Shown here in pieces: positions 6,458 to 48,051 of a DNA stretch of 64,000 nucleotides. The stretch spans positions 32,001 to 96,000 of the IMG/VR virus record IMGVR_UViG_3300014656_000017, one strand, 5' to 3'. The notes under the pieces were generated by a model. The model was not told the DNA's origin. It was given only the letters and a program-made list of their open reading frames with translations, and ran no database searches. Positions within the stretch are counted from its first letter, which is position 1. Every line of letters begins with the position of its first letter. This DNA is from a virus. The translations under genes were made by a program, and so were the position numbers.

Positions 6458-6458
6458 G

Positions 6459-21033: not shown

Positions 21034-21052
21034 ACTAGCTCCTTTATTGACC

Positions 21053-21073: not shown

Positions 21074-21089
21074 ACCCTTATTTTAATTA

Positions 21090-26928: not shown

Positions 26929-26948
26929 ACTTATCCGCCTTCTATATA

Positions 26949-26956
26949 TATTTATG
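26949..26956 (-). promoter_or_regulatory. T4-type late promoter for the homing endonuclease
   Basis: CATAAATA 20 nt upstream of the ATG, same core as at 54464 and 60391. Confidence 0.5.
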
Positions 26957-28243: not shown

Positions 28244-30202
28244 TTATTTAACAGGGCATACACCACTAGCACATTCGATTCCTTCAATATCCTCACCTGA
28301 AGATTTTATAATATGAATAGGCTGGAGTTTAGAGGTAAGCTCGGTATATTCTTCTTTAGTAATTTCTTGTAAAACAGGTTGCGCAAATCCATGATCACTA
28401 TGAAGCAAAAAACTAACTGATTTAATACTATTATCGTAATTATGTTTTAGCCATTCTTTTATTCCTGTTAGCTCTTCTTTTTTATAATACACAGTTACGC
28501 TAATAGAATTATCTGACCAAATAGTTTGAAGATTTTTAACCATCTCAAGCTGTTGAATAGCAGACATATCTTTTGCTAAAATGGTTTGTTCAGAAGACTC
28601 ACAAGGAAAAGAAACTACACAAGTATTATGATCATATGAACCATCAAAATTTAAAACGAATTCAATAGGATATCCTAAACTACGACAATATGCAACTAAT
28701 GGATCAGTAGCACCAATTCTCACTCTACGAATATAGTGTTGACTATAAGCAGGATGAATCCCAGGAGTGGAACCACTTAATAATGAAAGAGTTCCGCTTG
28801 GCTTACATGTAGAAAGCTTAATACTTTCATTCCATCCTCTTTCTTTACTCCATTGTTTATCAAATTTTCTAAGCTCTTTATAACATTCATCCAACCATTC
28901 TAATTTATCTATTGATTGACATATACCGGTCACTCCCAATCCTAATCTCATATTCTTATGTACTACTTTAGTTGTTTCCTCATGAATAAAGTTCATTGAA
29001 GCAACAGCTTTCTGTGTTTTATATAAAAGTTTAGCACAGGTAATAAGTTCTTCTTTTGAGGTAATATTGTTCAAATATAATTCCGCAAGATTACAACATT
29101 CTTTATCTGATAGAAAAATTTCAACGCACGGATTTGCGCCATCAACAGGATCTTTACATGGTTCACCTAAACGACCCATTTTTTGTGCTAATGGCAGATT
29201 AATAAAACCATAAGGCTCACCCTGTCCATTATACCCATCCCATACATCTCTCATAATGTGTGAATATTCATCTGCATAGATGGTATTATTAGACATAGCT
29301 CGCCAATTTGGAATATTGCCTAAATCCCATCGTTTAGCTCTAAGGAATAGATAATCATCTGGATCGCCAAGAGCAACCTCAGCACTTCTCCTCACATTGC
29401 CCGATACCACAAGCATTCCAATGATATTACAAATGTCTAAAACATCTATAGAACGTAACTTCTTTCCTTCTCTGCTTCTAAGAACATTTACAATTTTATC
29501 CATATTTTCAACAAGCAATTTCGGTCCACTTGCTTGACCACCAAAACTTCTAATATCTTCACCTTGACCTCTAACTAAGATAGTAGAATACGTAAATGAT
29601 TTTCCTTTAATAAAATATGCTTTTAAAATTTGTCTAAGCAATAAAATAAAACCTTCGCGGGAATCGGGTACAATAAAATTAGCATCTTTAGTTAATTCGT
29701 GTTTAATAAAAACATCTCTTTTAACTCTTGGCAATTCGTGAATATCTTCTGATTTTACAGAAAATCCAACACCGCCACCTAACATTAAATTCTCAAAAAG
29801 AAAACAGAAATCATCAATATTACGAATAGAAGTAAACCAGCAATTTAATAAACTGTTACCGCCAAACTTACGAACTACATTTGTACCTAACTGCCACAAC
29901 ATCCGCCCGGCATAATTACACTTTAAATTGAACATTAAATCATAAAGTTGTTCTGCTTCTTCTTTAGTGTAACCCGCTCCTATTTCTTGAGCGCCTTCAA
30001 TACTCCGCGCAATAGTTTCCCACCATTCTTCTGAAGTATCATCTTCTTTTTTACGCGCATAGGTTCTTTTGAAAACAATATACCCTAATCCGTTAAACCC
30101 CCAATTGGGTTGTTTGTTTTTATATTTGCTGAGAAAGTCTGGTGAAAAAGATTTAAACATTATTTTTAACTTGCTCCTCAATCCATTTATATGTTGGTTC
30201 AA
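28244..30202 (-). CDS. nrdJ: Class II (adenosylcobalamin-dependent) ribonucleotide reductase, monomeric RTPR type
   Basis: FKRTYAR, NCWF, GGGVGFS, GNVRRSAE, NPCVEI, CNLAE, KPSGT, C-terminal CASGVCP; true start probably MFKSF. Confidence 0.93.
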   Translation of the reverse strand: MNQHINGLRSKLKIMFKSFSPDFLSKYKNKQPNWGFNGLGYIVFKRTYARKKEDDTSEEWWETIARSIEGAQEIGAGYTKEEAEQLYDLMFNLKCNYAGRMLWQLGTNVVRKFGGNSLLNCWFTSIRNIDDFCFLFENLMLGGGVGFSVKSEDIHELPRVKRDVFIKHELTKDANFIVPDSREGFILLLRQILKAYFIKGKSFTYSTILVRGQGEDIRSFGGQASGPKLLVENMDKIVNVLRSREGKKLRSIDVLDICNIIGMLVVSGNVRRSAEVALGDPDDYLFLRAKRWDLGNIPNWRAMSNNTIYADEYSHIMRDVWDGYNGQGEPYGFINLPLAQKMGRLGEPCKDPVDGANPCVEIFLSDKECCNLAELYLNNITSKEELITCAKLLYKTQKAVASMNFIHEETTKVVHKNMRLGLGVTGICQSIDKLEWLDECYKELRKFDKQWSKERGWNESIKLSTCKPSGTLSLLSGSTPGIHPAYSQHYIRRVRIGATDPLVAYCRSLGYPIEFVLNFDGSYDHNTCVVSFPCESSEQTILAKDMSAIQQLEMVKNLQTIWSDNSISVTVYYKKEELTGIKEWLKHNYDNSIKSVSFLLHSDHGFAQPVLQEITKEEYTELTSKLQPIHIIKSSGEDIEGIECASGVCPVK

Positions 30203-31133
30203 TGCCTCTTACTAGTGGCCATTGTGATTTCCATCCTGTTGAATATATTTTGTTGTTACTAAAATTGCGAGATTGTACACCTACTGGACCATCTATATGA
30301 TTAATGATTATATCTTTATTTGCAATTTTTGCAATAGTGTATGCTAGTTCATCTACAGAAACATATTCAGGATTGCCTATGTTAGTAGGACCTTTTAAAT
30401 CAGAATGCATTAATCTGTAAATACCTTCAACCATATCTTCTACGTAAGTATATGATCTTACGGCAGTTCCATCACCCCAAACATCTATAGTTCCTTTATT
30501 ACCTTTTATTTCCGCAATTTTTCGACATAGTGCAGCTGGAGCCTTTTCTCTTCCACCTTTCCATGTTCCATACGGCCCATAACAATTTTGAAAACGTGCA
30601 ATACGTACAGAAATATTATATTTTCTTCCGTATGCTTCTACAACACGTTCTGAATATAATTTCTCGAAACCGTACTCATTATGAGGCATTGCTGGATAGG
30701 CTTGTACTTCATTCATTTCAGGTTCTCCTATTTTCATGTCACGGTATACACAAACAGAAGAAGAATAAAAATACCTTCCAGGTACTCCAGGTACTCCATA
30801 GTTTGCTGTACAAGCAGCATGTATCATATTAACATTAATAAGAACATTGTTTCGCATGATATCTGTTTCTGCGCTGTGAATGAATCCCATTCCGCCCATG
30901 TCAGCTGCTAAAGAATATATTTCATCATAAGGTTTCCAAAAAGGATTTAACATAGCCAAATCACAATTTTGTGGAATTCTTAAATCTAATAGTTTAAATT
31001 CGTCACAAGAAAGAGATCGATATTCTGGATTCTTAATATCTACACCTCGAACCCAATATCCTTGTTTTTTAAGATACTCTACCAAATGCCCGGCAATGAA
31101 ACCGCCGGCGCCAGTTACTAGTGCTGTTTTCAT
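30153..31133 (-). CDS. NAD-dependent epimerase, GDP-mannose 3',5'-epimerase-like
   Basis: TGAGGFIA, LAADMGGMGFI, SSSVCVY, YGFEK, GGREKAPAALCRK. Confidence 0.85.
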   Translation of the reverse strand: MKTALVTGAGGFIAGHLVEYLKKQGYWVRGVDIKNPEYRSLSCDEFKLLDLRIPQNCDLAMLNPFWKPYDEIYSLAADMGGMGFIHSAETDIMRNNVLINVNMIHAACTANYGVPGVPGRYFYSSSVCVYRDMKIGEPEMNEVQAYPAMPHNEYGFEKLYSERVVEAYGRKYNISVRIARFQNCYGPYGTWKGGREKAPAALCRKIAEIKGNKGTIDVWGDGTAVRSYTYVEDMVEGIYRLMHSDLKGPTNIGNPEYVSVDELAYTIAKIANKDIIINHIDGPVGVQSRNFSNNKIYSTGWKSQWPLVRGIEPTYKWIEEQVKNNV

Positions 31134-31141
31134 AGACTCCT

Positions 31142-31972
31142 TTACATATAATTACTAAGTTTAATATAATCTAAATATTCTTCAAGGAATATCTCTTTAA
31201 TTTGTTTATCTTCTATTTGCAAATCGTGAGGCTCTGTAAAAAACAATCCACTATCCTTTAATTCATCATACCAATAGTACATGTCAGACAACATTTGTTG
31301 AACAGGAATAGTTCCTAATCTAATTGCTTCAAAAAAACGCAAACATATAAATTTACCTACACCCAATGGACATAATGCATATTTATATTCACTGAGTGTT
31401 TGTAAATATTGCTGGTACGTTAATTTTCTATCTGTACTGATTATTTCTAATGGAATTTTACCATTAAGCTTTCTTAGCATATCTGCACGTTTACTATACT
31501 CGTTTTGGTTAAATCTCCCTAAAAATAATACAACATCTTTCTTAGGTTTCTTTTCAACATTAAACACCATACTCTTCGATAGGTAAAATTTATTAAGAAT
31601 TGTTTTATTCAATAAATTAGCATCGTCAATGTCTGCAACAAATTGCGTTACATTTTTAAATGAATTTACAGCATTTTGATTATCAATATTCCACGGAAAT
31701 GGAGAATTGTAAATTTTATCAAAGTTAAAAATGATAACTTTGACATTTTGTTCATTTACACTATTAATAAATTGTTTTGTACTCCACACGTCTCTGTTTG
31801 GATGAAAATGTTCATCTACAATATATAAATGCGAAATACCTTCTATATCATTTATTGTGTTAATATCTTTAAAGGCCTCATTTGGAAAAAAGTTTTTTAA
31901 TGCCATTCTATAATTTTGAAACATACTATGGCCTACTAATTCTAAACTGTCGTGACATAATAGTCCTATCAT
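31142..31972 (-). CDS. Glycosyltransferase-like protein (GT-B/exostosin-like C-terminus)
   Basis: YKYALCPLG...RFFEAIRLGTIPV. Confidence 0.65.
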   Translation of the reverse strand: MIGLLCHDSLELVGHSMFQNYRMALKNFFPNEAFKDINTINDIEGISHLYIVDEHFHPNRDVWSTKQFINSVNEQNVKVIIFNFDKIYNSPFPWNIDNQNAVNSFKNVTQFVADIDDANLLNKTILNKFYLSKSMVFNVEKKPKKDVVLFLGRFNQNEYSKRADMLRKLNGKIPLEIISTDRKLTYQQYLQTLSEYKYALCPLGVGKFICLRFFEAIRLGTIPVQQMLSDMYYWYDELKDSGLFFTEPHDLQIEDKQIKEIFLEEYLDYIKLSNYM

Positions 31973-32574
31973 GTTATTTCCTTCTGAGGATCTAAAAATA
32001 TAACGCCTTGTTTAGACCCTTCTGCTTTATTATTATACCTGTAAATTACATTATTTCCATATATATTTTTAAAGTATTTTTCGTAGTTTTTAAATGTGTA
32101 TGAAATATTATCATGAGTGTCATATCCATATTCAGGATGGTATGGATTATGAAAGTCGTGTATAACTAAATATGGCTTAATTGATAATTTGGCCATAAAC
32201 TCTAGTTCTCTTTGTAGTATCATTCCTCCACCCCAATGTGCATCTAAAAAGGCAAGGATTTTTTTATTTTTTAATCCATCTAAATTGTTTTCAAGCACTG
32301 TAGGGCTATCTCCCAAAAAAATATCAAAATATTCACATTTTTTCACTGCATTAGTTGTAATGGTTAAAAATTCTTCGTTTTTTTCAATTGCCATTACAGG
32401 AATTTTAAATTTAACCAAAAACTGGGTTGTATTTCCTAGATGCGTACCTGTTTCGATAATTAGATTTGGTTTAAATGTTGATACTATCTTAATAAATGCT
32501 TTTTGCAAATATGTATCCCCTTCAAATGCAATTTTATCTATCATACTATTTCCTGTTGTATTAAATTTTTCCAA
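31969..32574 (-). CDS. Class I SAM-dependent methyltransferase-like protein
   Basis: IIETGTHLG, GDS, FLDAH, IHD. Confidence 0.7.
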   Translation of the reverse strand: MEKFNTTGNSMIDKIAFEGDTYLQKAFIKIVSTFKPNLIIETGTHLGNTTQFLVKFKIPVMAIEKNEEFLTITTNAVKKCEYFDIFLGDSPTVLENNLDGLKNKKILAFLDAHWGGGMILQRELEFMAKLSIKPYLVIHDFHNPYHPEYGYDTHDNISYTFKNYEKYFKNIYGNNVIYRYNNKAEGSKQGVIFLDPQKEIT

Positions 32575-33422
32575 TATTCTAAATCCAATTTTTCATAATT
32601 ATATACTTTTTCCGTAATTTTTCTATAGGCACTTTTTAAAAATTCTTGATTTAACATTTTCCACGCACCTTCTTGTCGGGGTATTTTTAACATAGGCAGA
32701 TCATTAAACCCTTCATTATGAACACAGTCTACAACAATAGGTATAGAATTTAAATACAAACTTTCCCACATTCTGTGACTATCTGTTCCTCCGCCCATAG
32801 GACAGATATTAAAAACTGATTTTGAAATATCTCTCCAATAATCTTCTTGTGATCTGCCTCTAATCATTGGTATAAACTGAGTATCTTTAGCAACATGCAT
32901 TCTATTACAATGTGAAGTGTTTATGTCAAAATTTTTATACACTAAAAATTCTTTTTTGTTATTCTCTCTTCTTATTTTATCAAACAGATTTAAATTTCCA
33001 TGAGGCCATTGTGAATTAGCTACTCCAATTGGAATGGGTATTAATTTATCATGTCTGTATTCAACGTTTTGTGCAAACCATTTTTTAATTTTAGGATCAT
33101 CTAAATACTGTTTATATTTTTCAGAAATCCATGCATCTGAATTGTGTGTAACTAGTATAAAGTTATTTTTTAATAATGGATAAATTTTATTAAAGAAAAA
33201 GTCTAATATGTGTGTATATACAAATATTGATTTAGCTTTTTGTAACTCAAATGGAATATCAGTAGTATTAGATTCAAAAAAATGATAATTTGTTTTTGTA
33301 TTTTTAAGTTGATTTCTTAAAAGAGCTGAATCCCCATTGTCTTTGGCATTTAGAATAACAGTAAAATCTGTTAATTCTTGTATTTTTTCACCTGTTATAT
33401 AATTTATTTGTAAACTGTCCAT
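32541..33422 (-). CDS. Exostosin/GT47-like glycosyltransferase
   Basis: THNSD, WFAQN, PIPIG, ICPMGGGTDSHRMWESLYLNSIPIV. Confidence 0.7.
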   Translation of the reverse strand: MDSLQINYITGEKIQELTDFTVILNAKDNGDSALLRNQLKNTKTNYHFFESNTTDIPFELQKAKSIFVYTHILDFFFNKIYPLLKNNFILVTHNSDAWISEKYKQYLDDPKIKKWFAQNVEYRHDKLIPIPIGVANSQWPHGNLNLFDKIRRENNKKEFLVYKNFDINTSHCNRMHVAKDTQFIPMIRGRSQEDYWRDISKSVFNICPMGGGTDSHRMWESLYLNSIPIVVDCVHNEGFNDLPMLKIPRQEGAWKMLNQEFLKSAYRKITEKVYNYEKLDLEYWKNLIQQEIV

Positions 33423-34723
33423 AAGTCTCTTTCAGATAATGCTTTTTTTGTTATTTTAAAAATATATTTATATAATTTAAACGGAAGTGGTATTCTAATA
33501 AGCACAGGCGTAATAGGCCTAAAAATTTTTGGATAAGCTGTTATTAACGGCCACAGTTTATGTAATCTTTCTATTAAAATTTTTTTCTTAAGGTTTAAGG
33601 TAGACACTCCAAAAAATCCATCATCAACACTATCATCATCTGGAATGAATCCATCTTTTTTAGCCTTTAAATAAATTTGAGATCCTTTATAACATTGAAG
33701 TAAAGCACTCCATGAAGATGTAGGTTTACATTTAATATTAAAATCTAACGTTTCAAAGGCATCTGATAAAGAATTCTCAATAGGTAAACCAATAATATTT
33801 TGTAATCTAGTGCGTATATTGTAATTATTACATATTTGAATTGCTTGTTTAACTTGTTCTTTGTTTCCGACTCTGTTTAAAATTGTTTTTCTATTCTCAT
33901 CATTAGCAGATTCTAATGCCAAACTTATTATTGCACAACCAGCACTAGATAAAATTTTTGCTGCTTCATCTGTTATATCATTTGGATGAGCATTACATAT
34001 AAAAGGCAAGTTAATTTTTTTCTTGTATAATATTGCAAATTCTTTTAGCCATTCAATTGGCTTTATAAAACCATCATCCATTATATGAATCATTTTTAGA
34101 GGTTGCCACTTTTCTTTAAGTTCTAATGCTTCATTTATAACATCTTCAACATTTCTAATTCTTATAATATTTTTACATTGACCTTTATGTAATTTGTTCC
34201 ACCTATTATTAAAACAATACGAACAATTAAATTTACACCCTCGCCTTGTTATCATATTTTTAATTGGATTGTTTTTTATATCTGGATATGAATATATCAA
34301 TTTTCTATCTGGAAAAGGAATTTTATTTATATCTATAAGTATAAGATCTTTATATTTTTGGCCGTTTATAAAATCTAAAATTGAATTCTCTCCTTCACCT
34401 CTAATATAATTTTTTCCTTGAAAAATGTCAGGATCAAAGGTTGCAGCAGGACCACCATAAAGTGTTATATAGTTTAAATTGGGCAACTTGTTTTTAATTG
34501 TTGCATCCAGATCAAAATAATATTTTTCCGATCCAGAATATACAGAATAACATATATAATCTGGATTGATTTGTTGTACATAATAAAAAAAGCTATCGTT
34601 GTTGTATATATCCCGGCGCAACAAATATGTCAAATTTCCGGCGCTTTTCAATGAAGACAACAAATACATAATACCCAAATGTTCCATTTTCATTTCTTTT
34701 ACAATGAATAATATTTTTTTCAT
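33404..34723 (-). CDS. B12-binding radical SAM enzyme
   Basis: N-terminal HLGIMYL...GGPAAT...RGEGE cobalamin-binding domain; RGCKFNCSYC; DD and ES motifs. Confidence 0.88.
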   Translation of the reverse strand: MKKILFIVKEMKMEHLGIMYLLSSLKSAGNLTYLLRRDIYNNDSFFYYVQQINPDYICYSVYSGSEKYYFDLDATIKNKLPNLNYITLYGGPAATFDPDIFQGKNYIRGEGENSILDFINGQKYKDLILIDINKIPFPDRKLIYSYPDIKNNPIKNMITRRGCKFNCSYCFNNRWNKLHKGQCKNIIRIRNVEDVINEALELKEKWQPLKMIHIMDDGFIKPIEWLKEFAILYKKKINLPFICNAHPNDITDEAAKILSSAGCAIISLALESANDENRKTILNRVGNKEQVKQAIQICNNYNIRTRLQNIIGLPIENSLSDAFETLDFNIKCKPTSSWSALLQCYKGSQIYLKAKKDGFIPDDDSVDDGFFGVSTLNLKKKILIERLHKLWPLITAYPKIFRPITPVLIRIPLPFKLYKYIFKITKKALSERDLWTVYK

Positions 34724-35518
34724 TTAATCATCCACATTTGGTAATATACGATATGTGTCTAGTGTAATATGTGTTGTATTTTTGAAATGAGTAAATGAAT
34801 AATTAGTAGGAGGTATAAATCTTTCTGTGGCAAACATAAACAGATTTGTATTATTTTTATATATATTTTTAACTGTGCTTGCCAAACAAGATTGACCTGA
34901 AGTCACAGATATATAATTTTTACAAGAAAACATAACATCACAATAATGTTCTAAACTGTTCACATGATAGTCATTGTTAATATCTTTTATAAAGGGCAAT
35001 TTAGGTGCTACAGTATATTTACCATTATGTGTAATATTAACAGGATGATCTAATTTATATTTTTCTATGAGTTTATATACACATTTATTAAGATTGTCAA
35101 TATTACGTGGAATATCACAATTATAAAATTGTGTATAAAATGAATATGTGCAAAAATCAAAAACACTTGTATTTTCAAGTTCTTTAATAAACTTTGGTTT
35201 ATAATATATTTTACCATAATGAAATTTAGGCTCTAGTTTATAGGCGACTTGAATTTCTAAAAAATTATTCCAATTTCTGTTATGCTGATTTAAATGTTTA
35301 ATTGGTGTATCCATCCACCACATATCTGTACTGTCTTTTTTGCCTAACAAGTATGGGTTTTTGCCCCATATGAAATCGTATATTTCTTGATTGCGGCACG
35401 CATTTTGATTACTCAAATAGCATTTAATTCCTAAATTATGACACATTTCTGGTATAGGAGAATGAGTTAAATTGTCTCCCAACCCTCCCCACGGCTGATA
35501 TATTATTATTTCATCCAT
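34724..35518 (-). CDS. Glycosyltransferase-like protein (GT9/GT-B type)
   Basis: WGGLGDNL N-terminal loop; SGQSCLAS. Confidence 0.55.
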   Translation of the reverse strand: MDEIIIYQPWGGLGDNLTHSPIPEMCHNLGIKCYLSNQNACRNQEIYDFIWGKNPYLLGKKDSTDMWWMDTPIKHLNQHNRNWNNFLEIQVAYKLEPKFHYGKIYYKPKFIKELENTSVFDFCTYSFYTQFYNCDIPRNIDNLNKCVYKLIEKYKLDHPVNITHNGKYTVAPKLPFIKDINNDYHVNSLEHYCDVMFSCKNYISVTSGQSCLASTVKNIYKNNTNLFMFATERFIPPTNYSFTHFKNTTHITLDTYRILPNVDD

Positions 35519-35531
35519 TATATTTTATCCA

Positions 35532-40084: not shown

Positions 40085-40704
40085 TGAGCAAACCTATTAA
40101 CTATGTTTTCATCAAATTTAATCATTTCTTTTAGTCCAGGACCGCCATGTGGATAAGTTGGTATATATTTATATCTCTTAACACAGGAAGGCCAATTGAT
40201 ATTTTTTCTTGACCCTCTTAATAACTTAGATGTTTCAACACTTCGATCATTATCTTCAATGATGAAAGTGCACGGCAATCTTAAATTTTGTACATATCTA
40301 ACGGCTTCGTAAAAATGACCACCGTCTTCACCACCGTCTCCAATAAAACACCATACTTTGTTTTTTGATCCTTTCAATTTAAGAGCTAATGCCACTCCAG
40401 CAGCAATACCAGCAGTTCCGGCTAATACAGACGAAGTTAGAAAGTTTAACTTCTTATCAAACACAAACATGCTATCTCCATTTCGTATTTTTTGTTCTAA
40501 TACTTTTGGATCTCCGCCTTTTAGCAAATAATGATAATGGGATCGATGAGTTGAAAAAACATAATCATCTGGTTTTATATCTTTAAATATGTGCAACAAC
40601 TGATCTTCATTTCCACCTGAAAAGTGTACCAAAAAAGGCAATTTGCCCTCTTTAAATACTTCCTTCATTTTGGTTTCAAAGTCTATTAATTCTTTTTTAG
40701 TCAT
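40081..40704 (-). CDS. TPP-dependent enzyme, E1-alpha-like diphosphate-binding subunit (short form)
   Basis: HFSGGNE, STHRSHYH, TPP motif GDGGEDGG...EDND. Confidence 0.85.
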   Translation of the reverse strand: MTKKELIDFETKMKEVFKEGKLPFLVHFSGGNEDQLLHIFKDIKPDDYVFSTHRSHYHYLLKGGDPKVLEQKIRNGDSMFVFDKKLNFLTSSVLAGTAGIAAGVALALKLKGSKNKVWCFIGDGGEDGGHFYEAVRYVQNLRLPCTFIIEDNDRSVETSKLLRGSRKNINWPSCVKRYKYIPTYPHGGPGLKEMIKFDENIVNRFAQ

Positions 40705-41768
40705 TAGACAAAGTTATCCCCATAAGCATTTAATAATTCGTGAATAAATATATTCTTATTATCATTCGCACAAAAACATTTGCAACATATTTGTGGGTTA
40801 AATTTATCAAAATGTTTTTTAGTTTCTTCACTAAACCATAATTGTTTAAATGATTGGTTTTTAATGGATCCTATTATTCCATCCGTAGAATATGCTTTGT
40901 TATGACAATTATACACAAAACTATCAGCGCCTATTACAGGAATGGTTTGCATAATATAACATCTATTATAGGGTCGTTTAAAACTTTCTGGCTCAATTTT
41001 GTATCCATCATATATTTTAAATTCACTGTTTTCATAAAACTTTTTTGTACACTCTAGTATATATGAAACTTCTTTAGTAATATTACGATGATATTCAACA
41101 TAATTATCTACTTGAACTGGAAAATATCTTATATTATTAATACCTATTTCTTTTAACAATTTTGTCATTTCATGTATATTGTCTACATTTTCTTTGGTTA
41201 TAATATAATTAACAGATAATTCACATACATCATTTTTGATTTTATTAAACTCTATAATGTTAGATATTATTTGATCAAACATTTTTTCATTTCCGCCGCG
41301 TGATTTGACAAAAGATTCTGCGTCGTAATAATCCATAGAAATTCTAATCCATTTAGCTTTAGATAAAACCTCCGCGCGCTTTCCATTCAATAATTGGGCA
41401 TTTGTTAATAGAGATAAATCTAGTCCATTGTCCAAAGTTCTTTGCATGGCTTCTGCTATATTAGGATGCATTAACGGTTCTCCACCGCCAGAATATGTTA
41501 CACATTTTGTTCCCATATCTTTTAAATCATCTAGTACTTCAAACAGTTTATCTTTGGGCAACATATCAGATTCATTCATTGTTTCATGCATATGAACATT
41601 TTTAGCTCTATAAATACAAAATGAACAACTATGGCAACATTTATTAATAGGCTTTATTCGTACGTAGATAGGAGGTGTTATTCGTCCATCTTTAAAGGAA
41701 TTAAGCTTTTCAGGAAACCATACTATTTTTTTGTTACTATATTTATTTGTTGTTTTTACCATACTCAA
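40704..41768 (-). CDS. Radical SAM enzyme with SPASM/Twitch domain
   Basis: CCHSCSFC, SGGGEP, C-terminal Cys cluster. Confidence 0.88.
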   Translation of the reverse strand: MSMVKTTNKYSNKKIVWFPEKLNSFKDGRITPPIYVRIKPINKCCHSCSFCIYRAKNVHMHETMNESDMLPKDKLFEVLDDLKDMGTKCVTYSGGGEPLMHPNIAEAMQRTLDNGLDLSLLTNAQLLNGKRAEVLSKAKWIRISMDYYDAESFVKSRGGNEKMFDQIISNIIEFNKIKNDVCELSVNYIITKENVDNIHEMTKLLKEIGINNIRYFPVQVDNYVEYHRNITKEVSYILECTKKFYENSEFKIYDGYKIEPESFKRPYNRCYIMQTIPVIGADSFVYNCHNKAYSTDGIIGSIKNQSFKQLWFSEETKKHFDKFNPQICCKCFCANDNKNIFIHELLNAYGDNFV

Positions 41769-41774
41769 TTCCTA

Positions 41775-42827
41775 TTAAATAAATTCATCATTATTTTCGG
41801 GGTGTTTAAGTCTGTCTAAATATCTATTAATTACGTCTAATCGACAGCAATAATTTTTGCACGTTTTAAATTTCAATTTATTAATTTGTGCAATTATATC
41901 TTTTCTTTTCTGACTTGTCCAAATTTCTTTAAACGTATTGTTATACAGATTACCATAAACATATTTTGAATTATAAAAAATAGAACAAGGTATAATATCT
42001 CCTTTAGCATCTATAATAACATAAAAATCAAAACCATGACATCCTGTATAATTTTTTTCTTGTGTAAGTCTTTCTGCACTTTTAACTCTAACCACTACAG
42101 TAAATTTATCATCTTCCAATTTTTCCAAATTTTCTTTTAATGTTTGGTGTGCAAATTTATATATTCCAGTAGAGTATGAACTCTTTGGATGGTTATGCGC
42201 TGGTTTTAATTGAAAATTATCAACACCAGCATTTTTACACCACAAGGCTAGCATTTCAGCTTCATTAATATTTTCATTCATTAAAATTAACTGTACGCCA
42301 ATATCAACCTTAAAATTGTTGGCCTTTTTAATTTCAACACAGTCTTTTATATTTTGTAATATAATATCGTAATTTTTTGGTGATATACCATGAATGAGTG
42401 CATGGGTTTCTGCCGTACCCGCATCTATACTAAATCGTAACCAAGAAAGATCTCCTAATATTTCTGTTGCCATTTTTTTATTAAAAAGAGATCCGTTTGT
42501 GGATATAGCTTGTCCCATTCCTAATTGTTTTCCATACTTTATAAATTCAACTAGATTCTTATGTAAGGTGGGTTCTCCTTCACCAGCATAGTAAACTGAT
42601 TTAACTCCCATTTCAGCCATTTCTTTTAATGTATTCATAAATACATCTTTATCTATTTCATTCTTTCCATGTGTAGACCAATCTAAAATGCAAAACTTAC
42701 ATTTATGATTGCATTTATTTGTTATGCCCACTTCTGCATGAAAGGGTACATATTCACCGTTCATCCACTTTATTAAACATTGAGGATGATACATCAGTTT
42801 ATGTGAATCACTATCTTTAACACTCAT
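41775..42827 (-). CDS. Radical SAM enzyme with SPASM/Twitch domain (paralog of the neighbour)
   Basis: CNHKCKFC, GEGEP, GDIIPC...GNL...FKEIW. Confidence 0.88.
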   Translation of the reverse strand: MSVKDSDSHKLMYHPQCLIKWMNGEYVPFHAEVGITNKCNHKCKFCILDWSTHGKNEIDKDVFMNTLKEMAEMGVKSVYYAGEGEPTLHKNLVEFIKYGKQLGMGQAISTNGSLFNKKMATEILGDLSWLRFSIDAGTAETHALIHGISPKNYDIILQNIKDCVEIKKANNFKVDIGVQLILMNENINEAEMLALWCKNAGVDNFQLKPAHNHPKSSYSTGIYKFAHQTLKENLEKLEDDKFTVVVRVKSAERLTQEKNYTGCHGFDFYVIIDAKGDIIPCSIFYNSKYVYGNLYNNTFKEIWTSQKRKDIIAQINKLKFKTCKNYCCRLDVINRYLDRLKHPENNDEFI

Positions 42828-43779
42828 TATTTTTCTCCTTGTTTATCCAGTATTTAACAAGATCTTTTAATGTATTTTTTAAACTATATTTTGGTTTCCA
42901 ATTTAAAAACCTCTTAACTTTTACACTATTTGGATGTACTGTCAACGTATCTATAGGTCTATAAAGTTTTTCATCTATTGTTAATTCAACATCTTTTAAT
43001 TTGAATTCATTTAACATAATCTTTATATAATGTTCTATATCATATGTTTTTGTTGCGCTTATGTTAAACACTTCTCCATTGTTTATTGCTCCGTTTAAAT
43101 GATTTGTCATTAGTTGATAATACACATCTACCATATCTCGTACATCTAAAACTGCTCGACTGGCTTTTATATTACCTACACGAATAATCTTATCTTGTTT
43201 GTTTAATATAATTTTAGCTATTTGTCTTGCATCAGAAGATATAGAAAATGTTGAAGGTCTGCCTGGACCTGTATGTGAAAATGGTCTAACAATAAAATTT
43301 TTCAATTTGGCGTTTTGTGATCTTTCTAAAATATACATATCAGCAGCAGCTTTAGATACCCCATAAGGATTGTTAGGTTGTAATGGACAATTTTCCTTTA
43401 TTTGTTCTTTCACATTTCCATACACATCGCCCGTAGAACACTGCATTATAATGCTTTGCGGGGCATTAGATAAAATGGATTCGCATAGATTTATAGTGCC
43501 TATAGTATTAGTGTTAAATGTAAGTAGAGGATCTTGAAATGCTAGTGGTATATGTGTTTGCGCTGCCAAATGAAAAATTCCGTCAAATGTGTTATTAGTT
43601 AAAATATTAACTATTTGTTGTTTATATGTTAAGTCACACCGGTGATAATTAATACCTGTAATAGGCTGAAATCCTTCAGTTTTATATGTACCATGAACTA
43701 TATGATTTTCAGCTAACAACTTTTGAGCTAAATGTTGTCCTGCAAAACCAGATACTCCTGTTATTAGAAATTTTAGCAT
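42817..43779 (-). CDS. NDP-sugar SDR, GDP-mannose 4,6-dehydratase / 4-keto-6-deoxy-mannose reductase (GMD/RMD)-like
   Basis: TGVSGFAG, HLAAQT, YGVSK, RPFSHTGPG, DVRD. Confidence 0.82.
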   Translation of the reverse strand: MLKFLITGVSGFAGQHLAQKLLAENHIVHGTYKTEGFQPITGINYHRCDLTYKQQIVNILTNNTFDGIFHLAAQTHIPLAFQDPLLTFNTNTIGTINLCESILSNAPQSIIMQCSTGDVYGNVKEQIKENCPLQPNNPYGVSKAAADMYILERSQNAKLKNFIVRPFSHTGPGRPSTFSISSDARQIAKIILNKQDKIIRVGNIKASRAVLDVRDMVDVYYQLMTNHLNGAINNGEVFNISATKTYDIEHYIKIMLNEFKLKDVELTIDEKLYRPIDTLTVHPNSVKVKRFLNWKPKYSLKNTLKDLVKYWINKEKNNEC

Positions 43780-44351
43780 TGTTCAGTATATAAATCCTTA
43801 TCTTCCACAATTAAACAACTTTCATCAGCATTATATATGGTTATAATATCATCTGCTCTCAAAGGCAGTTCAATAACTGGCATATCACACATCTCTCTAA
43901 ACGCTTTAGAAAAATTTTGTGTATGAGTGGCTCCAGTAAATAGTGGGTTTGCTTTATTTCCTACTACAGTTCTTATGATAACACGCGGATCAAATTCTCC
44001 GTGTGACATTTGTTTAATTTTATCTAAATGGTTTACAATAGCATCGGCGGCATGGATAACAAAATCAAATCTTTCAATATATACAACAGGTTTAAATCCT
44101 TCTAAGCTTAATCCAATAGCCATAGAAACAATAAGATTTTCTGCTACAGGTGTTTCTATTAATTGATTATCTGGAATATTCACAAGAGTTCCATTGGCTT
44201 TAGATCCATACTTCACATTATATCCAATAAACAATGTTTTTGGATCTTCAGCTAATATTTCCATTGAAGTTCTGATAGCGTCTTTATAGGTCATATATAG
44301 TCCATTTATTTTTAAGAGTTGGTTTTTCATCGGGTGGATATCGGCGCGCAT
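43773..44351 (-). CDS. TPP-dependent enzyme, E1-beta/transketolase pyrimidine-binding subunit (short form)
   Basis: ETPVAE, AIGLSLEG, GATHTQ; true start probably MTYKDAI. Confidence 0.82.
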   Translation of the reverse strand: MRADIHPMKNQLLKINGLYMTYKDAIRTSMEILAEDPKTLFIGYNVKYGSKANGTLVNIPDNQLIETPVAENLIVSMAIGLSLEGFKPVVYIERFDFVIHAADAIVNHLDKIKQMSHGEFDPRVIIRTVVGNKANPLFTGATHTQNFSKAFREMCDMPVIELPLRADDIITIYNADESCLIVEDKDLYTEQC

Positions 44352-44997
44352 ATCTGTGACTGTACAATTTATCTGTAATGTTTAAAGTGTCCGCAAGAAA
44401 CAAAAAACTGCTTTCTACTACATGAATTTCTTTCGCGTGTTCAATAATGTAACAGTAGTCGAATATATTATTTGTGTAATTTTCTTTAGCGTAAATGGTT
44501 GGAACATTTTGTGGTACAAGTTTTCTATTAATTATAAATTTACCTTTATAGTTATTTCCATTATCTTCGTGAAAAAATATATATTCTCCTTCTTTTACAT
44601 TGAATCTTTTAAAAAAAGATTTTTCTCTTTCCATGTCTCTGTCAAGATAAAAATCGGTCCATCTTTTTTCAAAATCGATATTATATTGCTTGTAGAAAGC
44701 TTGATCAAAGTTTATGTTATTGTCTCTAAACTCATACCCTATTTTTAACAATTTTTGTGGATTATTTAGTTTAATCCATTCTTCAGCTTGTGGTTCTTTT
44801 TGGACCATTAAATACTTAATATTTTTTAAATCCCTATACATCCACATTACAGAGGGAGCTTTAGATTGTTTAATAAACAAATTAATTTGATCATAATCTT
44901 TAATAAGATTTCTTATTAATCCGTTGCACACTATATTATCCCCAAGGTGGAGATGTGGATAAATGTATACATTGTTATACATTATAATTTCCCCCAT
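44284..44997 (-). CDS. Glycosyltransferase-like protein
   Basis: HLGDNIVCNG, FHED, IEHAKEIHVVESSF. Confidence 0.6.
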   Translation of the reverse strand: MGEIIMYNNVYIYPHLHLGDNIVCNGLIRNLIKDYDQINLFIKQSKAPSVMWMYRDLKNIKYLMVQKEPQAEEWIKLNNPQKLLKIGYEFRDNNINFDQAFYKQYNIDFEKRWTDFYLDRDMEREKSFFKRFNVKEGEYIFFHEDNGNNYKGKFIINRKLVPQNVPTIYAKENYTNNIFDYCYIIEHAKEIHVVESSFLFLADTLNITDKLYSHRYARRYPPDEKPTLKNKWTIYDL

Positions 44998-45763
44998 GCC
45001 TATAAGGAAGATCGGTGAACATATGAATCTTTTCTGGTGGGACTAATAAATTAACGCCAAAATATTTAATAGGAGCATCACCCCATCGCTTAATAAAAAT
45101 GTTTCCTGTTTTATCAATATAGTTGAAATAGTCCATATAGTTTTTTATAAACCACTGCACATTTGTAAGATCAAAATGTGTATGAAAAGTACCATTATAT
45201 TTCAATTCACCTATTTTAGGATTGTTTGGTTGATATTTTTTAACGGTTTCATATAATCCTTCTATTACATAATCATCATCTATTCCCTCTCCAACAGAAG
45301 CGTACAGATAATCTTTTTCTTGCATTACAGCAAACGGATCATATTTCATTTTATCATAAAAATATGAATCAGAATCTATTCTAAGCAAATATTGAGCCGC
45401 TTTTATTATAGGCAGTTCAAAAATTTTACCAGAATACAGTCTACACATATGCCTATAACCCATACTAAAAAATGCAGTCTTATCCCAATGTCCTTTAAAT
45501 TTAATTGGTATTTGATCAATAATATCTTTAGAATAATCGAGATCAAATTGTATTTCTTGGAAAATAAATTTAATGTTTGGAAACATTTGTTGTAGCCTTT
45601 TAATATTGTTTGCGGGGCCTCCCTCGTGTAAAATTATTACAGGATAGTCCCACGTGCTTAAAAAATTATTGTATAACAATTTAAGACTTGACACAATCCT
45701 ATATGCATGAAGAGGGTGATGATAGTATAAATAACAGATTGCGGCATTAGGTATAATTTTCAT
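44975..45763 (-). CDS. GT15 (Kre2/Mnt1-like) alpha-1,2-mannosyltransferase
   Basis: GYRHMCRLYSG, RIDSDS, GNIFIKRWGDAP, YRH. Confidence 0.85.
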   Translation of the reverse strand: MKIIPNAAICYLYYHHPLHAYRIVSSLKLLYNNFLSTWDYPVIILHEGGPANNIKRLQQMFPNIKFIFQEIQFDLDYSKDIIDQIPIKFKGHWDKTAFFSMGYRHMCRLYSGKIFELPIIKAAQYLLRIDSDSYFYDKMKYDPFAVMQEKDYLYASVGEGIDDDYVIEGLYETVKKYQPNNPKIGELKYNGTFHTHFDLTNVQWFIKNYMDYFNYIDKTGNIFIKRWGDAPIKYFGVNLLVPPEKIHMFTDLPYRHGGNYNV

Positions 45764-46483
45764 TTAATTATATATTATCCAATTTCTTTTAAGTGTAGGT
45801 TGAGCAAAAGGTTCAATATTTCTACTGTATTTATGAAGATATAATTTATTCCCAATGTCTAAAGAATCAATTAAAGGAGAGAAGCTACTAGGTATTACAT
45901 GAATTTCTTTTGCTCTTTCAATGATCGTTAAATAATCAAATATATTTGGGGTTAATCCTTTTTCTGAAAAAACTATTTTTGGAATTGATATTAACTTTTT
46001 GTCTACAATCATATTTCTGGCTACATCCTCGTGTACAAAGGCATATTCAGAATCGTCCAAGTTATATTTAATCTTTATTTTTTTATAAAATTGTTCTTCG
46101 CTAGGCAAATCTCTTATAACCTTAAACCCCTCCCACCGTTTACTAAAATCTACTCCCATCTTATAATAAAAACTAAAATCATAAACTCTACTAGATCTAT
46201 CAAAGGTTTGCATGCCTATCATGATATGAGGCAATTTTTTTTGATGAACGGTTAACATCATATTATATTCATTAAGAGTAGATATGCACTCTAAATTTTT
46301 AATGTCTCTATACATAAAAATGACAGAATCAATATGAGTGTGCATTACAAACAAGTAACATTTGTCAAATTTCGTACAGATAGCTCGAATGAGAGCATTG
46401 CACACTATAAAATCTCCTAATCCTTGGCTTTGACATATATAAATTTCTGGCATATTACATGATTCTTTTTCTTTTACTTTCAA
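45764..46483 (-). CDS. Glycosyltransferase-like protein, paralog of 44284-44997
   Basis: GLGDFIVCNA, MYRDIKN, VHED, IERAKEIHVIPSSF. Confidence 0.6.
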   Translation of the reverse strand: MKVKEKESCNMPEIYICQSQGLGDFIVCNALIRAICTKFDKCYLFVMHTHIDSVIFMYRDIKNLECISTLNEYNMMLTVHQKKLPHIMIGMQTFDRSSRVYDFSFYYKMGVDFSKRWEGFKVIRDLPSEEQFYKKIKIKYNLDDSEYAFVHEDVARNMIVDKKLISIPKIVFSEKGLTPNIFDYLTIIERAKEIHVIPSSFSPLIDSLDIGNKLYLHKYSRNIEPFAQPTLKRNWIIYN

Positions 46484-46489
46484 TCATAA

Positions 46490-47245
46490 TCAACTTCTAA
46501 ATTTATTACTTACAACCGACCAGTCCGGGACTTGTTTAATATATGCAGCTAACTTTAAAACATCCTTATCTCTTTCAGGGCCAAGGTCTTCCCACAATTT
46601 ATCACTAATTCTTTCTCTATTATCGCCTATCATTCTTTGCGCGGTTTTGTCTGGCGCAGTCTTTTTAATAGTCCAGTGATTGTGTTCTATTAATATATGT
46701 GGAATATATGTAATTCTTTTAAAAGCACTAAAAGTTTCCCACATCCAGCTATCAGAATAGTTTATTGGAAATTCGGGGCGGCACAAATATCCTAAAATCT
46801 CGTAATATTTTTTATGGATAAAAGCATTTACACACAGGCGCGGGCCATGATACCCATCATTACAATGTACCATTTTAATTTGGTCTGGAGGACAATTTTT
46901 ATCTGTAAATTCATTTAATATTTCTGAATCCCATGCAGGCGTTCTAAAAACCATATCGTCACCAATATATCCAAAGATATCGTGATCGACCTGTGCTACA
47001 GCTGCCAGTTGATTCCATATTCTATTAATTCCAATAAACTTGCCTTCATTATGTATTGGAACTATATGAACAAAAGGTATAGCACTAGATATTTTTTTGA
47101 CTATATCCTTTGTTGGATCATCGTCATCTATTCCAAAATATAAACTCACATTATTAATATCACTGACAGTAGTGATGATAGAACTTATCAAAGTAAGTTT
47201 TAAGTTGAGTCTTTCTCGACTGGGAACTAGCAATGCAATTTTCAT
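46490..47245 (-). CDS. GT-A (GT2-like) glycosyltransferase
   Basis: LVPSRER, DDDD, IGDD, IEHNH. Confidence 0.7.
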   Translation of the reverse strand: MKIALLVPSRERLNLKLTLISSIITTVSDINNVSLYFGIDDDDPTKDIVKKISSAIPFVHIVPIHNEGKFIGINRIWNQLAAVAQVDHDIFGYIGDDMVFRTPAWDSEILNEFTDKNCPPDQIKMVHCNDGYHGPRLCVNAFIHKKYYEILGYLCRPEFPINYSDSWMWETFSAFKRITYIPHILIEHNHWTIKKTAPDKTAQRMIGDNRERISDKLWEDLGPERDKDVLKLAAYIKQVPDWSVVSNKFRS

Positions 47246-48051
47246 AATATCTTTTTAGCATACTTCTTTTGTATATCTTCACAAATAGCTAATACCTTTT
47301 CAGGTGGTGTATCTGGAGTTTTAGTAGGAATGAATCCGTGCTTCTGAGCATACCATTGAGCTCCTTTTTGCATGCCCTCTGTCCATTCAGAGGTTTTTCG
47401 AATTACTGAATTGACTTCACTGCTTGCTAATTCATTAATATATTCATCACTATTAGCCAAATCAGCAAACCACCAAAATGGAGGATGTAATCCAGCTTTA
47501 ATAATTCTATATGTATGATCTACATGCTCCCAAGCATTTTGAAATCTTTCATCCATATATCCAATAGATTTAATAACACCTCTCAAATAATAACTAAAAG
47601 ATCCTACAGAATTTGGATTTAATCCAATCTCAATTCCATTCTCATAATCAACTATTTGTCTAGGATTCTTAACGCCATATTGTCCTGGTTTAAAGTTAGC
47701 AGGCCCGTGGTATGCAAAATTAAGGTGCCATATTCCAGAAGCCTCTGCTGCTTTGATATATGCATTAAAAACATCTGGATTTTTAATTAACATATCATCT
47801 TCTATTAAAAACAAATGCTGACATCCATCTTGAATCAAATATCTCAGTGCTTCGTTTTTAGAAATGCCTACACATTTATTAGAACTGTGTTGAATAACTT
47901 CTTTTACATTGCGTGTATAAACATCACTATCGTATGGCTTTCCATCATTGACTACTATTAATGTTTCTACACCAGGTATAGAAGCAAGACACTGTTTAAA
48001 GAAGTCTACTCTGTTACACGTTAGTATTGCTGCGCCAATTTTATTATTCAT
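47242..48051 (-). CDS. GT2 family glycosyltransferase
   Basis: ILTCNR, VVNDG, LIEDD, IGYMDERF..WEHVD. Confidence 0.85.
   Translation of the reverse strand: MNNKIGAAILTCNRVDFFKQCLASIPGVETLIVVNDGKPYDSDVYTRNVKEVIQHSSNKCVGISKNEALRYLIQDGCQHLFLIEDDMLIKNPDVFNAYIKAAEASGIWHLNFAYHGPANFKPGQYGVKNPRQIVDYENGIEIGLNPNSVGSFSYYLRGVIKSIGYMDERFQNAWEHVDHTYRIIKAGLHPPFWWFADLANSDEYINELASSEVNSVIRKTSEWTEGMQKGAQWYAQKHGFIPTKTPDTPPEKVLAICEDIQKKYAKKIL

Follow-up and report, generated by a model that had tools for sequence, protein, structure and literature searches.

A large composite glycosyltransferase and sugar-tailoring gene cluster in an uncultured T4-like phage

A 20-gene sugar and glycosyltransferase cluster

We analyzed a 64,000-nucleotide stretch of viral DNA (the window), which corresponds to bases 32001-96000 of the 110,908-bp IMG/VR contig IMGVR_UViG_3300014656_000017 (G000; CheckV completeness estimate, 49%). 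The source of the contig is an uncultured, deep-branching T4-like myophage. Positions 30153-48051 of the window hold 20 tightly packed minus-strand open reading frames (ORFs) that encode glycosyltransferases (GTs), sugar-nucleotide enzymes, methyltransferases, radical S-adenosylmethionine (SAM) enzymes, and a two-part thiamine enzyme (Table 1; genes are cited below by their coordinates or by the lower coordinate alone). A preliminary description of this DNA, made from the letters without database searches, had counted 19 tightly coupled, co-oriented genes and placed them between gp47 and gp46. The ORF list gives 20 genes, and their coupling and orientation are as described, with all of them on the minus strand and intergenic gaps of -68 to +31 nt. 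On the gp47 side the placement was also right, as a single 87-amino-acid (aa) ORF separates the cluster from that gene; the neighbor on the other side is a ribonucleotide reductase (RNR) gene, and gp46 lies 5.9 kb past the cluster end. The enzyme classes named earlier (GT2/GT-A, GT11, GT15, GT47-like, and GT9-like proteins, methyltransferases, radical SAM enzymes, a thiamine pyrophosphate enzyme, and short-chain dehydrogenases/reductases [SDRs]) were all recovered in place, and the catalytic motifs checked in the cluster enzymes are intact. No cluster protein reached an NCBIfam equivalog cut-off, so exact substrate names are not justified, except for the homology to GDP-mannose 3',5'-epimerase (GME) described below.

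The cluster encodes 12 GT-like domains, one more than the approximate number given in the preliminary description, which had identified the families correctly. Several of these families are virus dominated, and some share clusters with proteins of Nucleocytoviricota (giant viruses). The GT15 protein (44975-45763) aligns with profile positions 66-323 of 325 of PF01793 (107.7 bits; cut-off, 25) and contains the motif YRHMC, which presumably holds the catalytic tyrosine of this family. A single-sequence search of viral contigs for GT15 gave zero matches, and an alignment-based search then found relatives in at least 125 IMG/VR contigs; none of the 50,697 deposited phage records contains a member of the family. 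The first gene of the cluster (47242-48051) occurs in 24 related loci and also weakly matches the rhamnosyltransferase family TIGR01556, and homologs of 46490-47245 are present in Streptomyces and Pelagibacter phages.

Three proteins are GT9-like. The family of 44284-44997 has 1,642 representatives, and its AlphaFold2 (AF2) model (pLDDT, 95.7) retrieved in Foldseek searches first the protein heptosyltransferase TibC (4rap; E, 1e-5) and then GT9 (3tov), WaaF (1psw), and WaaC (2h1h). Based on the model of this paralog, 45764-46483 is predicted to adopt a GT9-like fold as well. The third protein, 34724-35518, has no Pfam, PHROG, or NCBIfam match and was recognized in the ESM Atlas by a feature score of 0.97 to a cluster in which 57% of members carry PF01075 and by a structural TM score of 0.65 to a GT9 cluster. 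The N-terminal domain of 35532-37082, which stands alone in 39 homologs, carries an invariant H-x-D-N-D, and its AF2 model (pLDDT, 96.2) matches the retaining GT-A enzymes LH3, XXYLT1, LgtC, and glycogenin at E values of ∼1e-7. Neither this domain nor 44284-44997 had a match in the HMM libraries. Assignments for the remaining GTs are weaker by profile score, including the C-terminal GT2 domain of 38669-40084 (PF00535, 17.6 bits), and most of these genes recur in other viruses: 37851-38672 in 14 related loci (39-49% identity), 37079-37819 in 38, and 32541-33422 in 16, with 31142-31972 being 43-44% identical to genes in three retrieved loci (L059, L098, and L102).

The sugar-nucleotide enzymes point to GDP-linked chemistry. 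The last gene of the cluster (30153-31133) matches Arabidopsis GME (PDB 2c59) over residues 6-324 with 278 bits (7.3e-82, phmmer), compared with 78 bits for the next SDR family, GDP-fucose synthase. By sequence comparison it is thus a true, full-length GME homolog, well above other SDR families, and the earlier reading of this gene as GME-like is borne out. Genes in 37 cyanomyophage records are 46% identical to it. The other SDR, 42817-43779, has the motifs GxxGxxG, YGVSK, and "STGDVYG," and its three closest solved relatives are all GDP-sugar enzymes: GDP-6-deoxy-D-mannose reductase (6x3b, 1.5e-40), GDP-heptose 4,6-dehydratase (7us5), and RMD (2pk3). These matches agree with its earlier classification as GMD/RMD-like, and the protein is probably a 4-keto reductase. 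Enzymes of the GT15 and GT11 families also use GDP-sugar donors. The proposal of a cytoplasmic GDP-sugar pathway is supported by the placement of both SDRs nearest to solved GDP-sugar enzymes and from the solubility of all 20 proteins.

Tailoring would be completed by methyl transfer. Two of the three methyltransferase domains noticed earlier are firmly placed, one of the FkbM type in 38669-40084 (PF05050, 46.8 bits, cut-off 22.7; TIGR01444, 53.9 bits, cut-off 37.7), a gene conserved in 15 related loci, and one of the NanM type at the C terminus of 35532-37082 (TIGR04371, 59.8 bits; cut-off, 44). The third, 31969-32574, is weak, with NCBIfam matches to RsmA (1.7e-4) and the rhamnosyl O-methyltransferase family NF045824 (0.0028). 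The earlier count of three radical SAM enzymes is confirmed, and each of them has an intact CX3CX2C motif. One of them, 33404-34723 (CKFNCSYC), has HpnJ and PhpK as its nearest NCBIfam families and is a probable C-methyltransferase.

No hydrophobic 19-residue window resembling a membrane helix occurs in any of the 20 proteins, which upholds the earlier statement that no obvious membrane protein is present. The accompanying statement that flippase, polymerase, and exporter are missing holds for membrane segments and for the Wzx flippase (PF01943, no match in G000 or its relatives), the Wzy, WaaL, and ABC families not having been searched separately. Priming transferases of the WbaP/PglC type (PF02397) and the WecA type (PF00953) gave no match in G000 and four related records, including two relatives that are 93% and 100% complete, and the controls were positive. 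As in bacterial O-antigen and capsule loci, nucleoside diphosphate (NDP)-sugar tailoring genes and several GTs are combined in one operon; the initiating phosphoglycosyltransferase and the integral membrane proteins of such loci are lacking here.

From position 52020 to 28244, the minus strand has no intergenic gap of more than 31 nt, and we found no late-promoter-like motif inside the cluster. Together, these features suggest that the cluster is probably transcribed with the helicase, gp55, and gp47 genes as one long unit, which does not separate the hypotheses on the acceptor of the sugars. The candidate late-promoter motif TATAAATA showed no enrichment. The motif CATAAATAT(TTAAA) was located upstream of two plus-strand late genes, one minus-strand gene, and 0 cluster genes and gives weak information on timing.

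Table 1. Genes of the cluster and of its surroundings in the window, with the match on which each assignment is based
Feature	Coordinates	Strand	Match or method
GT-A (GT2-like), first cluster gene	47242-48051	minus	phrog_2456 3.1e-26, phrog_1579 2e-22
Glycosyltransferase, PHROG family 14945	46490-47245	minus	phrog_14945 2.1e-33
Compact GT9-like (GT-B) GT	45764-46483	minus	38% identity to 44284-44997, E 1e-49
GT15 (Kre2/Mnt1-type alpha-1,2-mannosyltransferase-like)	44975-45763	minus	PF01793 1e-30
Compact GT9-like (GT-B) GT, directly upstream of thiamine beta	44284-44997	minus	AF2 model and Foldseek
Miniature E1-beta-like thiamine subunit, pyrimidine-binding domain only, 192 aa	43773-44351	minus	PF02779 28.4 bits
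RMD/GMD-family SDR on GDP-sugar	42817-43779	minus	PF16363 1.3e-58
Radical SAM/SPASM, paralog of 40704-41768	41775-42827	minus	PF04055 62.9 bits, PF13186 38.4 bits
Radical SAM/SPASM, ortholog of the radical SAM between thiamine subunits elsewhere	40704-41768	minus	PF04055 63.2 bits, PF13186 24.6 bits
Miniature E1-alpha-like thiamine subunit, diphosphate-binding domain only, 207 aa	40081-40704	minus	PF00676 59.1 bits
FkbM-type methyltransferase (N-terminal) and GT2-like GT (C-terminal) fusion	38669-40084	minus	Pfam/NCBIfam
GT-D-fold-like GT, weak assignment	37851-38672	minus	PF22882 24.6 bits (cut-off 27); NF040628 3.9e-5
GT11-like (alpha-1,2-fucosyltransferase family), borderline	37079-37819	minus	PF01531 23.6 bits (cut-off 23.9)
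GT-A domain (aa 1-270, GT8-like) and NanM-type sugar O-methyltransferase fusion	35532-37082	minus	Model and TIGR04371
GT9-like GT, virus-dominated family	34724-35518	minus	ESM Atlas
B12-binding radical SAM, class B	33404-34723	minus	PF04055 66.1 bits; PF02310 22.9 bits, under cut-off
GT47/RXYLT1-like GT	32541-33422	minus	PF24785 27.0 bits (equal to cut-off 27); PF03016 weak
Small SAM-methyltransferase-like protein, weak assignment	31969-32574	minus	PF04989 0.0031
GT47-like GT, weak assignment	31142-31972	minus	PF03016 25.2 bits (cut-off 33.4)
GME homolog, last cluster gene	30153-31133	minus	phmmer against 2c59
RNR, downstream flank	28244-30202	minus	phrog_367 2.8e-134
gp46/SbcC-like subunit	22438-24237	minus	phrog_77 1.4e-86
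DNA polymerase	17089-21075	minus	Core gene (PHROG search)
UvsX	15430-16539	minus	Core gene (PHROG search)
DnaB-like helicase	12672-14024	minus	Core gene (PHROG search)
gp47/SbcD-like recombination nuclease subunit, flank	48300-49358	minus	phrog_100 3.2e-60
gp55 late sigma	49345-50139	minus	Core gene
Helicase	50111-51619	minus	Core gene

A mobile thiamine/radical-SAM module and a conserved glycosyltransferase core

The two-part thiamine enzyme of the preliminary description was confirmed by Pfam and NCBIfam. PF00676 and PF02779 both score above their cut-offs, yielding an alpha subunit with the thiamine-diphosphate motif (GDG-X26-ND) and a beta subunit with the pyrimidine-binding domain. The alpha profile aligns to residues 44-209 of human pyruvate dehydrogenase (PDH) E1 alpha, and the beta subunit matches PDH E1 beta (NF006667, 1.4e-17) at profile positions 4-158 of 327. 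At 207 and 192 aa, both fall short of the full-length E1 architecture, in which alpha has ∼320-370 aa and beta has ∼325 aa with a transketolase C-terminal domain. The associated radical SAM proteins 40704-41768 and 41775-42827 share 26% identity, and both combine CX3CX2C (CNHKCKFC in the latter) with the C-terminal auxiliary-cluster cysteines of SPASM proteins. The first of them has a median identity of 46% to the cassette radical SAM of ∼55 loci, with MoaA and BlsE as its most distant PDB relatives.

This thiamine/radical-SAM block is a widespread phage module. The alpha subunit is unusually conserved (>1,375 homologs at 55-72% identity) and occurs in at least 513 IMG/VR contigs; in a scan of 185,579 species genomes, the matches listed include at least 4 small contigs from metagenome-assembled or single-amplified genomes. 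Alpha is found together with a beta subunit in 84 of 85 loci. The partner gene is an ortholog of the radical SAM/SPASM gene 40704-41768 in 52 loci, where the thiamine subunits are split, and a Zn-dependent alcohol dehydrogenase in 25 loci, where they are mostly fused, and the two partners never occur together. Two alternative oxidoreductases in the same slot would fit a reaction in which a sugar hydroxyl is oxidized first and the thiamine enzyme then adds carbon. We also noticed the arrangement at ∼10789-19565 of L002 (LR756501.1), a 735-kb uncultured megaphage with the largest known phage genome, in the order GT9-like gene, thiamine beta, radical SAM, thiamine alpha, and SDR.

In 42 of 80 loci, a recognized major head gene lies 2.1-4.7 kb upstream of the thiamine module. 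Three lineages are represented, whose head proteins are unrelated (phrog_283/P22 coat, phrog_771/264, and phrog_1005). In the first lineage, comprising ∼40 related contigs of 20-35 kb (e.g., L005), genes for terminase, portal, and the major head protein precede a 577-aa double GT, a 254-aa protein, thiamine beta, radical SAM, and thiamine alpha, which are followed by head-tail and tape-measure genes. In L005, the major head gene occupies 4702-5592 and the double GT gene 5907-7640, and the module extends to 10615. The module comes directly after the head gene in the other two lineages (L057, L050, and L077; L070), accompanied by GTs, methyltransferases, and a PfkB-like kinase. GTs are always present in the head-linked modules, and one of their domains is homologous to 46490; the double GT of L005 ends in a domain that belongs to the same PHROG as this protein and shares 24% identity with it. 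The 254-aa family is positionally equivalent to the 44284 family. Profile searches against PDB sequences gave zero matches for either family, and hhalign related the two weakly (35% probability). The segments L005:4702-10615, L057:4281-13587, and L070:3825-9468, in which a GT and the miniature thiamine module stand directly behind the major head gene with either a radical SAM or a Zn-dependent alcohol dehydrogenase plus PfkB-like kinase as partner, are candidates for a compact capsid-glycosylation cassette.

To place the cluster among its relatives, we compared all contig ORFs by tblastn with 78 viral loci retrieved with the GT15 alignment (L-numbers denote viral loci retrieved for context comparison; G001 and G002 are related records that are 93% and 100% complete), and two groups emerged. 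The closest relatives, at least 10 (L094, L096-L098, L100, L102, L108, L112, L113, and L115), have a colinear core of 47242, 44975, 46490, 38669, 37851, 37079, (34724, 35532), 32541, and 31142 at 36-57% identity. This GT core directly follows homologs of 58704-59447 (QueE-like) and 59672-60361 (AAA_28) and precedes a DUF366 gene. The more distant group (L150, L153, L162, and L164) has a smaller version of the cluster between uvsX and gp41, a slot that holds a paralogous AAA_28 gene in the present phage. The cluster is always found in plastic regions of the replication module, at variable exact positions. G000 itself encodes a DUF366 protein at 101297-101899 (L088:5297-5899; 6.6e-21); a literature search on DUF366 returned DUF3669 papers only.

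The thiamine/radical-SAM block is absent from every one of the closest relatives, and from the whole records behind five GT-core loci, two of which are 93% and 100% complete, in a search whose positive control worked. Because at least 10 relatives keep the colinear GT core without this block, the cluster is a composite of a core common to T4-like relatives and an inserted, mobile tailoring block.

The same comparison bears on whether a bacterial polysaccharide locus was misassembled onto phage DNA or captured very recently, which the content of SDRs, GT2, and GT9-like proteins might suggest and which we regard as very improbable. G+C content (0.27-0.33) and strand skew are alike in cluster and flanks, giving no sign of a chimeric assembly, and the genes overlap and share orientation with phage core genes on both sides. 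Recent bacterial capture, raised in the preliminary description as a possible refutation, is further contradicted by best homologs that are metagenome proteins of only 50-72% identity, by the virus-dominated GT families, and by the colinear core between phage genes in the relatives. Megablast of the 18-kb region against the 50,697 deposited phage records gave zero matches, and the gp47 protein is at most 28% identical to any of these records.

Candidate acceptors of the glycan

Our favored reading, tentatively given a rough probability of 0.45, is a cytoplasmic phage pathway whose product, an oligosaccharide, is assembled on a soluble acceptor; one or more virion proteins are the likeliest candidates. 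GDP-mannose-type sugars would be drawn from the host pool and then tailored, with the GME homolog producing GDP-L-galactose or GDP-L-gulose. A radical SAM enzyme would generate a keto or radical sugar intermediate, the thiamine enzyme would add a two-carbon unit from pyruvate, and the RMD-like SDR would reduce the product. The B12-radical SAM enzyme would add C-methyl groups and the SAM methyltransferases O-methyl groups, after which the GTs would extend the chain stepwise to give a methylated, probably C-branched oligosaccharide. A plausible proposal, offered a little more cautiously still, is that many uncultured phages glycosylate their capsids with a new branched sugar made by the miniature thiamine/radical-SAM module.

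The preliminary description had named the phage itself as the acceptor. This idea is supported indirectly by the module and the 46490 homolog behind a head gene in three lineages, and the head-gene association is the strongest support available, although indirect, for the sugar of the module ending on virions. Parallels with the capsid glycosylation of giant viruses also favor a virion acceptor. A set of observations weighs on the other side. The present phage and all T4-like relatives have the cluster in a neighborhood of replication and nucleotide-metabolism genes and not of structural genes; GTs within or next to structural genes, as in mycobacteriophages, are found only for the homologous module elsewhere. 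No late-promoter-like motif occurs inside the cluster. About 40 of the 42 head-linked loci come from one related phage group, so that they amount to about three independent observations, and they bear on the thiamine module and a single GT domain but not on the GT core. Homologs of that GT domain in Streptomyces phage Coruscant adjoin RNR and ThyX, not capsid genes. The contig is 49% complete and does not include the major capsid gene, and the C2-branching chemistry ascribed to the block is drawn by analogy. Finally, O-antigen GTs are also soluble or peripheral, so that a lack of membrane proteins still allows a lipid-linked host acceptor. In a scan for Ser/Thr-rich acceptors, we found a single Ser-rich ORF, outside the window at G000 106162-106974 (L088 10162-10974) and downstream of a helicase. 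It encodes 270 aa with a Ser/Pro-rich stretch (50% Ser plus Thr over 30 residues) and could be a target of glycosylation or simply a spurious ORF.

A lipid-linked acceptor is the basis of the reading that we consider unlikely, though the least so of the alternatives to virion glycosylation, namely, remodeling of the host envelope. The enzymes would act at the cytoplasmic face on lipid-linked O-antigen, lipopolysaccharide (LPS)-core, or capsule intermediates, and host priming enzyme, flippase, and ligase would finish the work, altering the surface of the infected cell, for example, to keep out superinfecting phages or to prevent progeny from being trapped. This is the standard interpretation, as a putative function, of GT/epimerase clusters in cyanomyophages and pelagimyophages (PMC9602691, PMC12801897, and PMC7029224), and in cyanophage S-CAM9 a GME homolog heads a smaller GT cluster that is likewise near RNR. 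GT9-like, GT11-like, and GT2-like families belong to the usual repertoire of LPS synthesis, and the apparent cotranscription with early or middle replication genes would suit such a role. However, neither a priming transferase nor a Wzx flippase was found in the contig or its near-complete relatives, no membrane protein is among the 20, and the products of twelve GTs would have to fit a host intermediate and stay acceptable to the host export machinery. Several of the GT families are virus dominated, not recent copies of bacterial LPS genes, and the tailoring module occurs in head-gene modules of other phages.

The genomic position of the cluster also brings DNA into view as an acceptor. The glycan, or part of it, might be attached to a modified base and shield the genome from host nucleases, as glucosylated hydroxymethylcytosine does in T4; we judge this improbable. 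All T4-like carriers keep the cluster in the replication/nucleotide module (gp47-RNR here and uvsX-gp41 in L150-L164), the core of the closest relatives has genes for a QueE-like radical SAM protein and an AAA_28 NTPase directly before it and a DUF366 gene after it, and 7-deazaguanine synthesis is represented in the phage by FolE2, QueD, and a QueE-like enzyme. Precedents are a thymidine adduct of ∼1 kDa in phage YerA41 (PMC9023294) and the decoration of DNA with diverse glycans by viral GTs (Pyle 2024, as cited in PMC12619734). On the other hand, the thymidylate-synthase-family hydroxymethylase (PF00303) is absent from G000, G001, and G002, the latter two of which have the GT core, and Pfam scans (E ≤ 0.01) of the 20 proteins revealed no T4 alpha- or beta-glucosyltransferase family. 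The link to que genes is not kept in the present phage, where they lie on the opposite strand ∼10 kb away, and our literature search gave no glycosylated 7-deazaguanine in DNA. Twelve GT domains together with C- and O-methylation far exceed the needs of any known DNA glycan.

A more specific version, in which the oligosaccharide or part of it is carried by a 7-deazaguanine base of the phage DNA, would be a kind of hypermodification not described so far and is a long shot. It is suggested by the location of the GT core between the QueE-like/AAA_28 pair and DUF366 and, in the distant group, in the uvsX-gp41 slot that is occupied by AAA_28 here. Since no QueC was seen in the window and a Pfam TGT search detected no TGT/DpdA, the base may be of the carboxy-deazaguanine type; a DpdA-like gene candidate was not confirmed by that search. 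The deazaguanine-related genes are scattered over the window (8991-9824, 14025-14636, 57931-58500, 58704-59447 [QueE-like], and 59672-60361 [AAA_28]) and comprise FolE2 (PF02649, 3e-71), QueD/PTPS (6e-27), the QueE-like radical SAM, and two AAA_28 NTPase paralogs.

Marginally less probable than DNA in general is another soluble product, either a free or small-molecule glycoside or a glycosylated nonvirion protein of phage or host, for instance, in the takeover or inactivation of a host factor. All 20 enzymes are soluble, TibC-like and GT8-like folds include protein-glycosylating enzymes, and B12-radical SAM enzymes, E1-type thiamine pairs, and O-methyltransferases are typically seen in the tailoring of natural-product sugars. 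Yet Pfam and NCBIfam scans of the 20 ORFs found no genes for polyketide synthases, nonribosomal peptide synthetases, or precursors of ribosomally synthesized and posttranslationally modified peptides; twelve GTs suggest a long chain, not a small glycoside; and the capsid-gene link of the module in other phages points to the virion.

Some features of the surrounding genes were noticed in passing. A further GT of 454 aa (21120-22484; phrog_7162, 1.5e-18) lies outside the cluster, between gp46 and the DNA polymerase gene. The match of gp55 to the late sigma factor starts at residue 117 of 264, leaving ∼115 extra N-terminal residues. The DNA polymerase ORF encodes 1,328 aa, with the PHROG polymerase match beginning at residue 657 and running in two stretches, and the protein has either an inserted element or a long extension at its N terminus. 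A "dehydrogenase" gene (phrog_9582; 25184-27847) comes in two pieces, the N terminus being encoded at 26957-27847 and the C terminus at 25184-25801; a basic 384-aa ORF (25774-26928) separates them, an arrangement that resembles an interruption by a mobile endonuclease or a split intein.

Comparison with known glycosylation systems

In T4, the alpha- and beta-glucosyltransferases are encoded near genes 55 and 47. The cluster resembles the DNA glycosylation systems of T4 and YerA41 in its replication-module position next to gp47/gp55, its soluble GTs, and its presumed early or middle expression. It differs in that the contig and its near-complete relatives have no hydroxymethylase, no GT matches a T4-type family, and the GTs and tailoring enzymes are far more than in any known DNA system.

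Mycobacteriophages carry glycans on capsid and tail-tube C termini (Freeman et al. 2023, as cited in PMC12619734). These systems share with the module in L005, L057, and L070 the placement of phage GTs and methyltransferases in a structural operon. They use two to a few GTs and common host NDP-sugars, unlike the 20 genes found here, which include de novo sugar tailoring and lie outside the structural module.

Giant viruses offer a further parallel in the enzymes employed. The PBCV-1 protein A064R, a fusion of two GTs and a methyltransferase, builds the capsid glycan (PMC7019647), and the present cluster has a methyltransferase-GT fusion in 38669 and a GT-methyltransferase fusion in 35532. The systems for the PBCV-1 Vp54 glycan and the Mimivirus fibrils are likewise made up of virus-encoded soluble GTs and tailoring enzymes that work in the cytoplasm, with O-methylated deoxy sugars. 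Unlike these viruses, the present one is a tailed phage of a prokaryote, its glycan is predicted from genes, and the homology is at the level of folds and clusters; the thiamine/radical-SAM block has no known counterpart there.

For the thiamine enzyme, the nearest analogs are the E1 alpha/beta pairs Plm8/Plm9 and AviB1/AviB2, which attach a pyruvate-derived C2 branch to keto-deoxysugars and of which YerE is a functional analog (PMC4802897). Separate alpha and beta subunits of the E1 family, an intact GDG...N motif, a sugar-tailoring gene set, and an adjoining NDP-keto-sugar SDR are common to all. The phage subunits differ in size (207 and 192 aa versus ∼320-370 aa) and lack the C-terminal part of alpha and the transketolase C-terminal domain of beta; they are always accompanied by a radical SAM enzyme or a Zn-dependent alcohol dehydrogenase, and their context is GDP- rather than dTDP-linked. 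If the chemistry is as proposed, the miniature family would represent a new carbon-carbon bond-forming step in sugar biosynthesis. With this block in hundreds of viral contigs, and behind a capsid gene in small phages, the question of the acceptor becomes testable. If virions are indeed glycosylated, glycan coats would be common on phage particles in aquatic viromes, with bearing on adsorption, grazing, stability, and recognition.

"LPS-like" sugar genes are a long-known feature of large marine phages of the T4 type, and the present cluster is among the largest and chemically richest examples. The preliminary description had called it the best candidate for an undescribed system, which goes too far, as GDP-mannose-based sugar/GT clusters are known in S-SCSM1, S-SCSM2R, P-SSM2, and pelagimyophages (PMC9602691, PMC12801897, and PMC7029224). 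The S-SCSM1 cluster (ORF121-135) encodes GMD, GDP-fucose synthase, GME, fucosyltransferases, and five GTs (PMC9602691). The 13 GTs encoded genome-wide by S-SCSM2R were described as possibly the highest number in a marine phage (PMC12801897), and radical SAM cassettes occur in the GT-rich variable regions of pelagimyophages (PMC7029224). Like those of S-SCSM1, S-SCSM2R, P-SSM2, S-CAM9, and the pelagimyophages, the cluster described here belongs to a T4-like aquatic myophage and consists of co-oriented genes for soluble proteins, often near RNR, with GDP-mannose chemistry, GT11/fucosyltransferase-type and GT2 enzymes, radical SAM cassettes, and a GME homolog as a shared element. Unlike the cyanomyophage clusters, it packs 12 GT-like domains into one 18-kb operon and adds a miniature thiamine enzyme, two SPASM radical SAM proteins, a B12-radical SAM, three GT9-like proteins, and a GT15 seen in 0 of the 50,697 records, with no DNA-level similarity to deposited phages. 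The cluster is therefore a larger and chemically richer form of the documented GDP-mannose sugar/GT clusters of marine T4-like phages, and the new elements here are its modular organization and the finding that the thiamine/radical-SAM module is associated with capsid genes.

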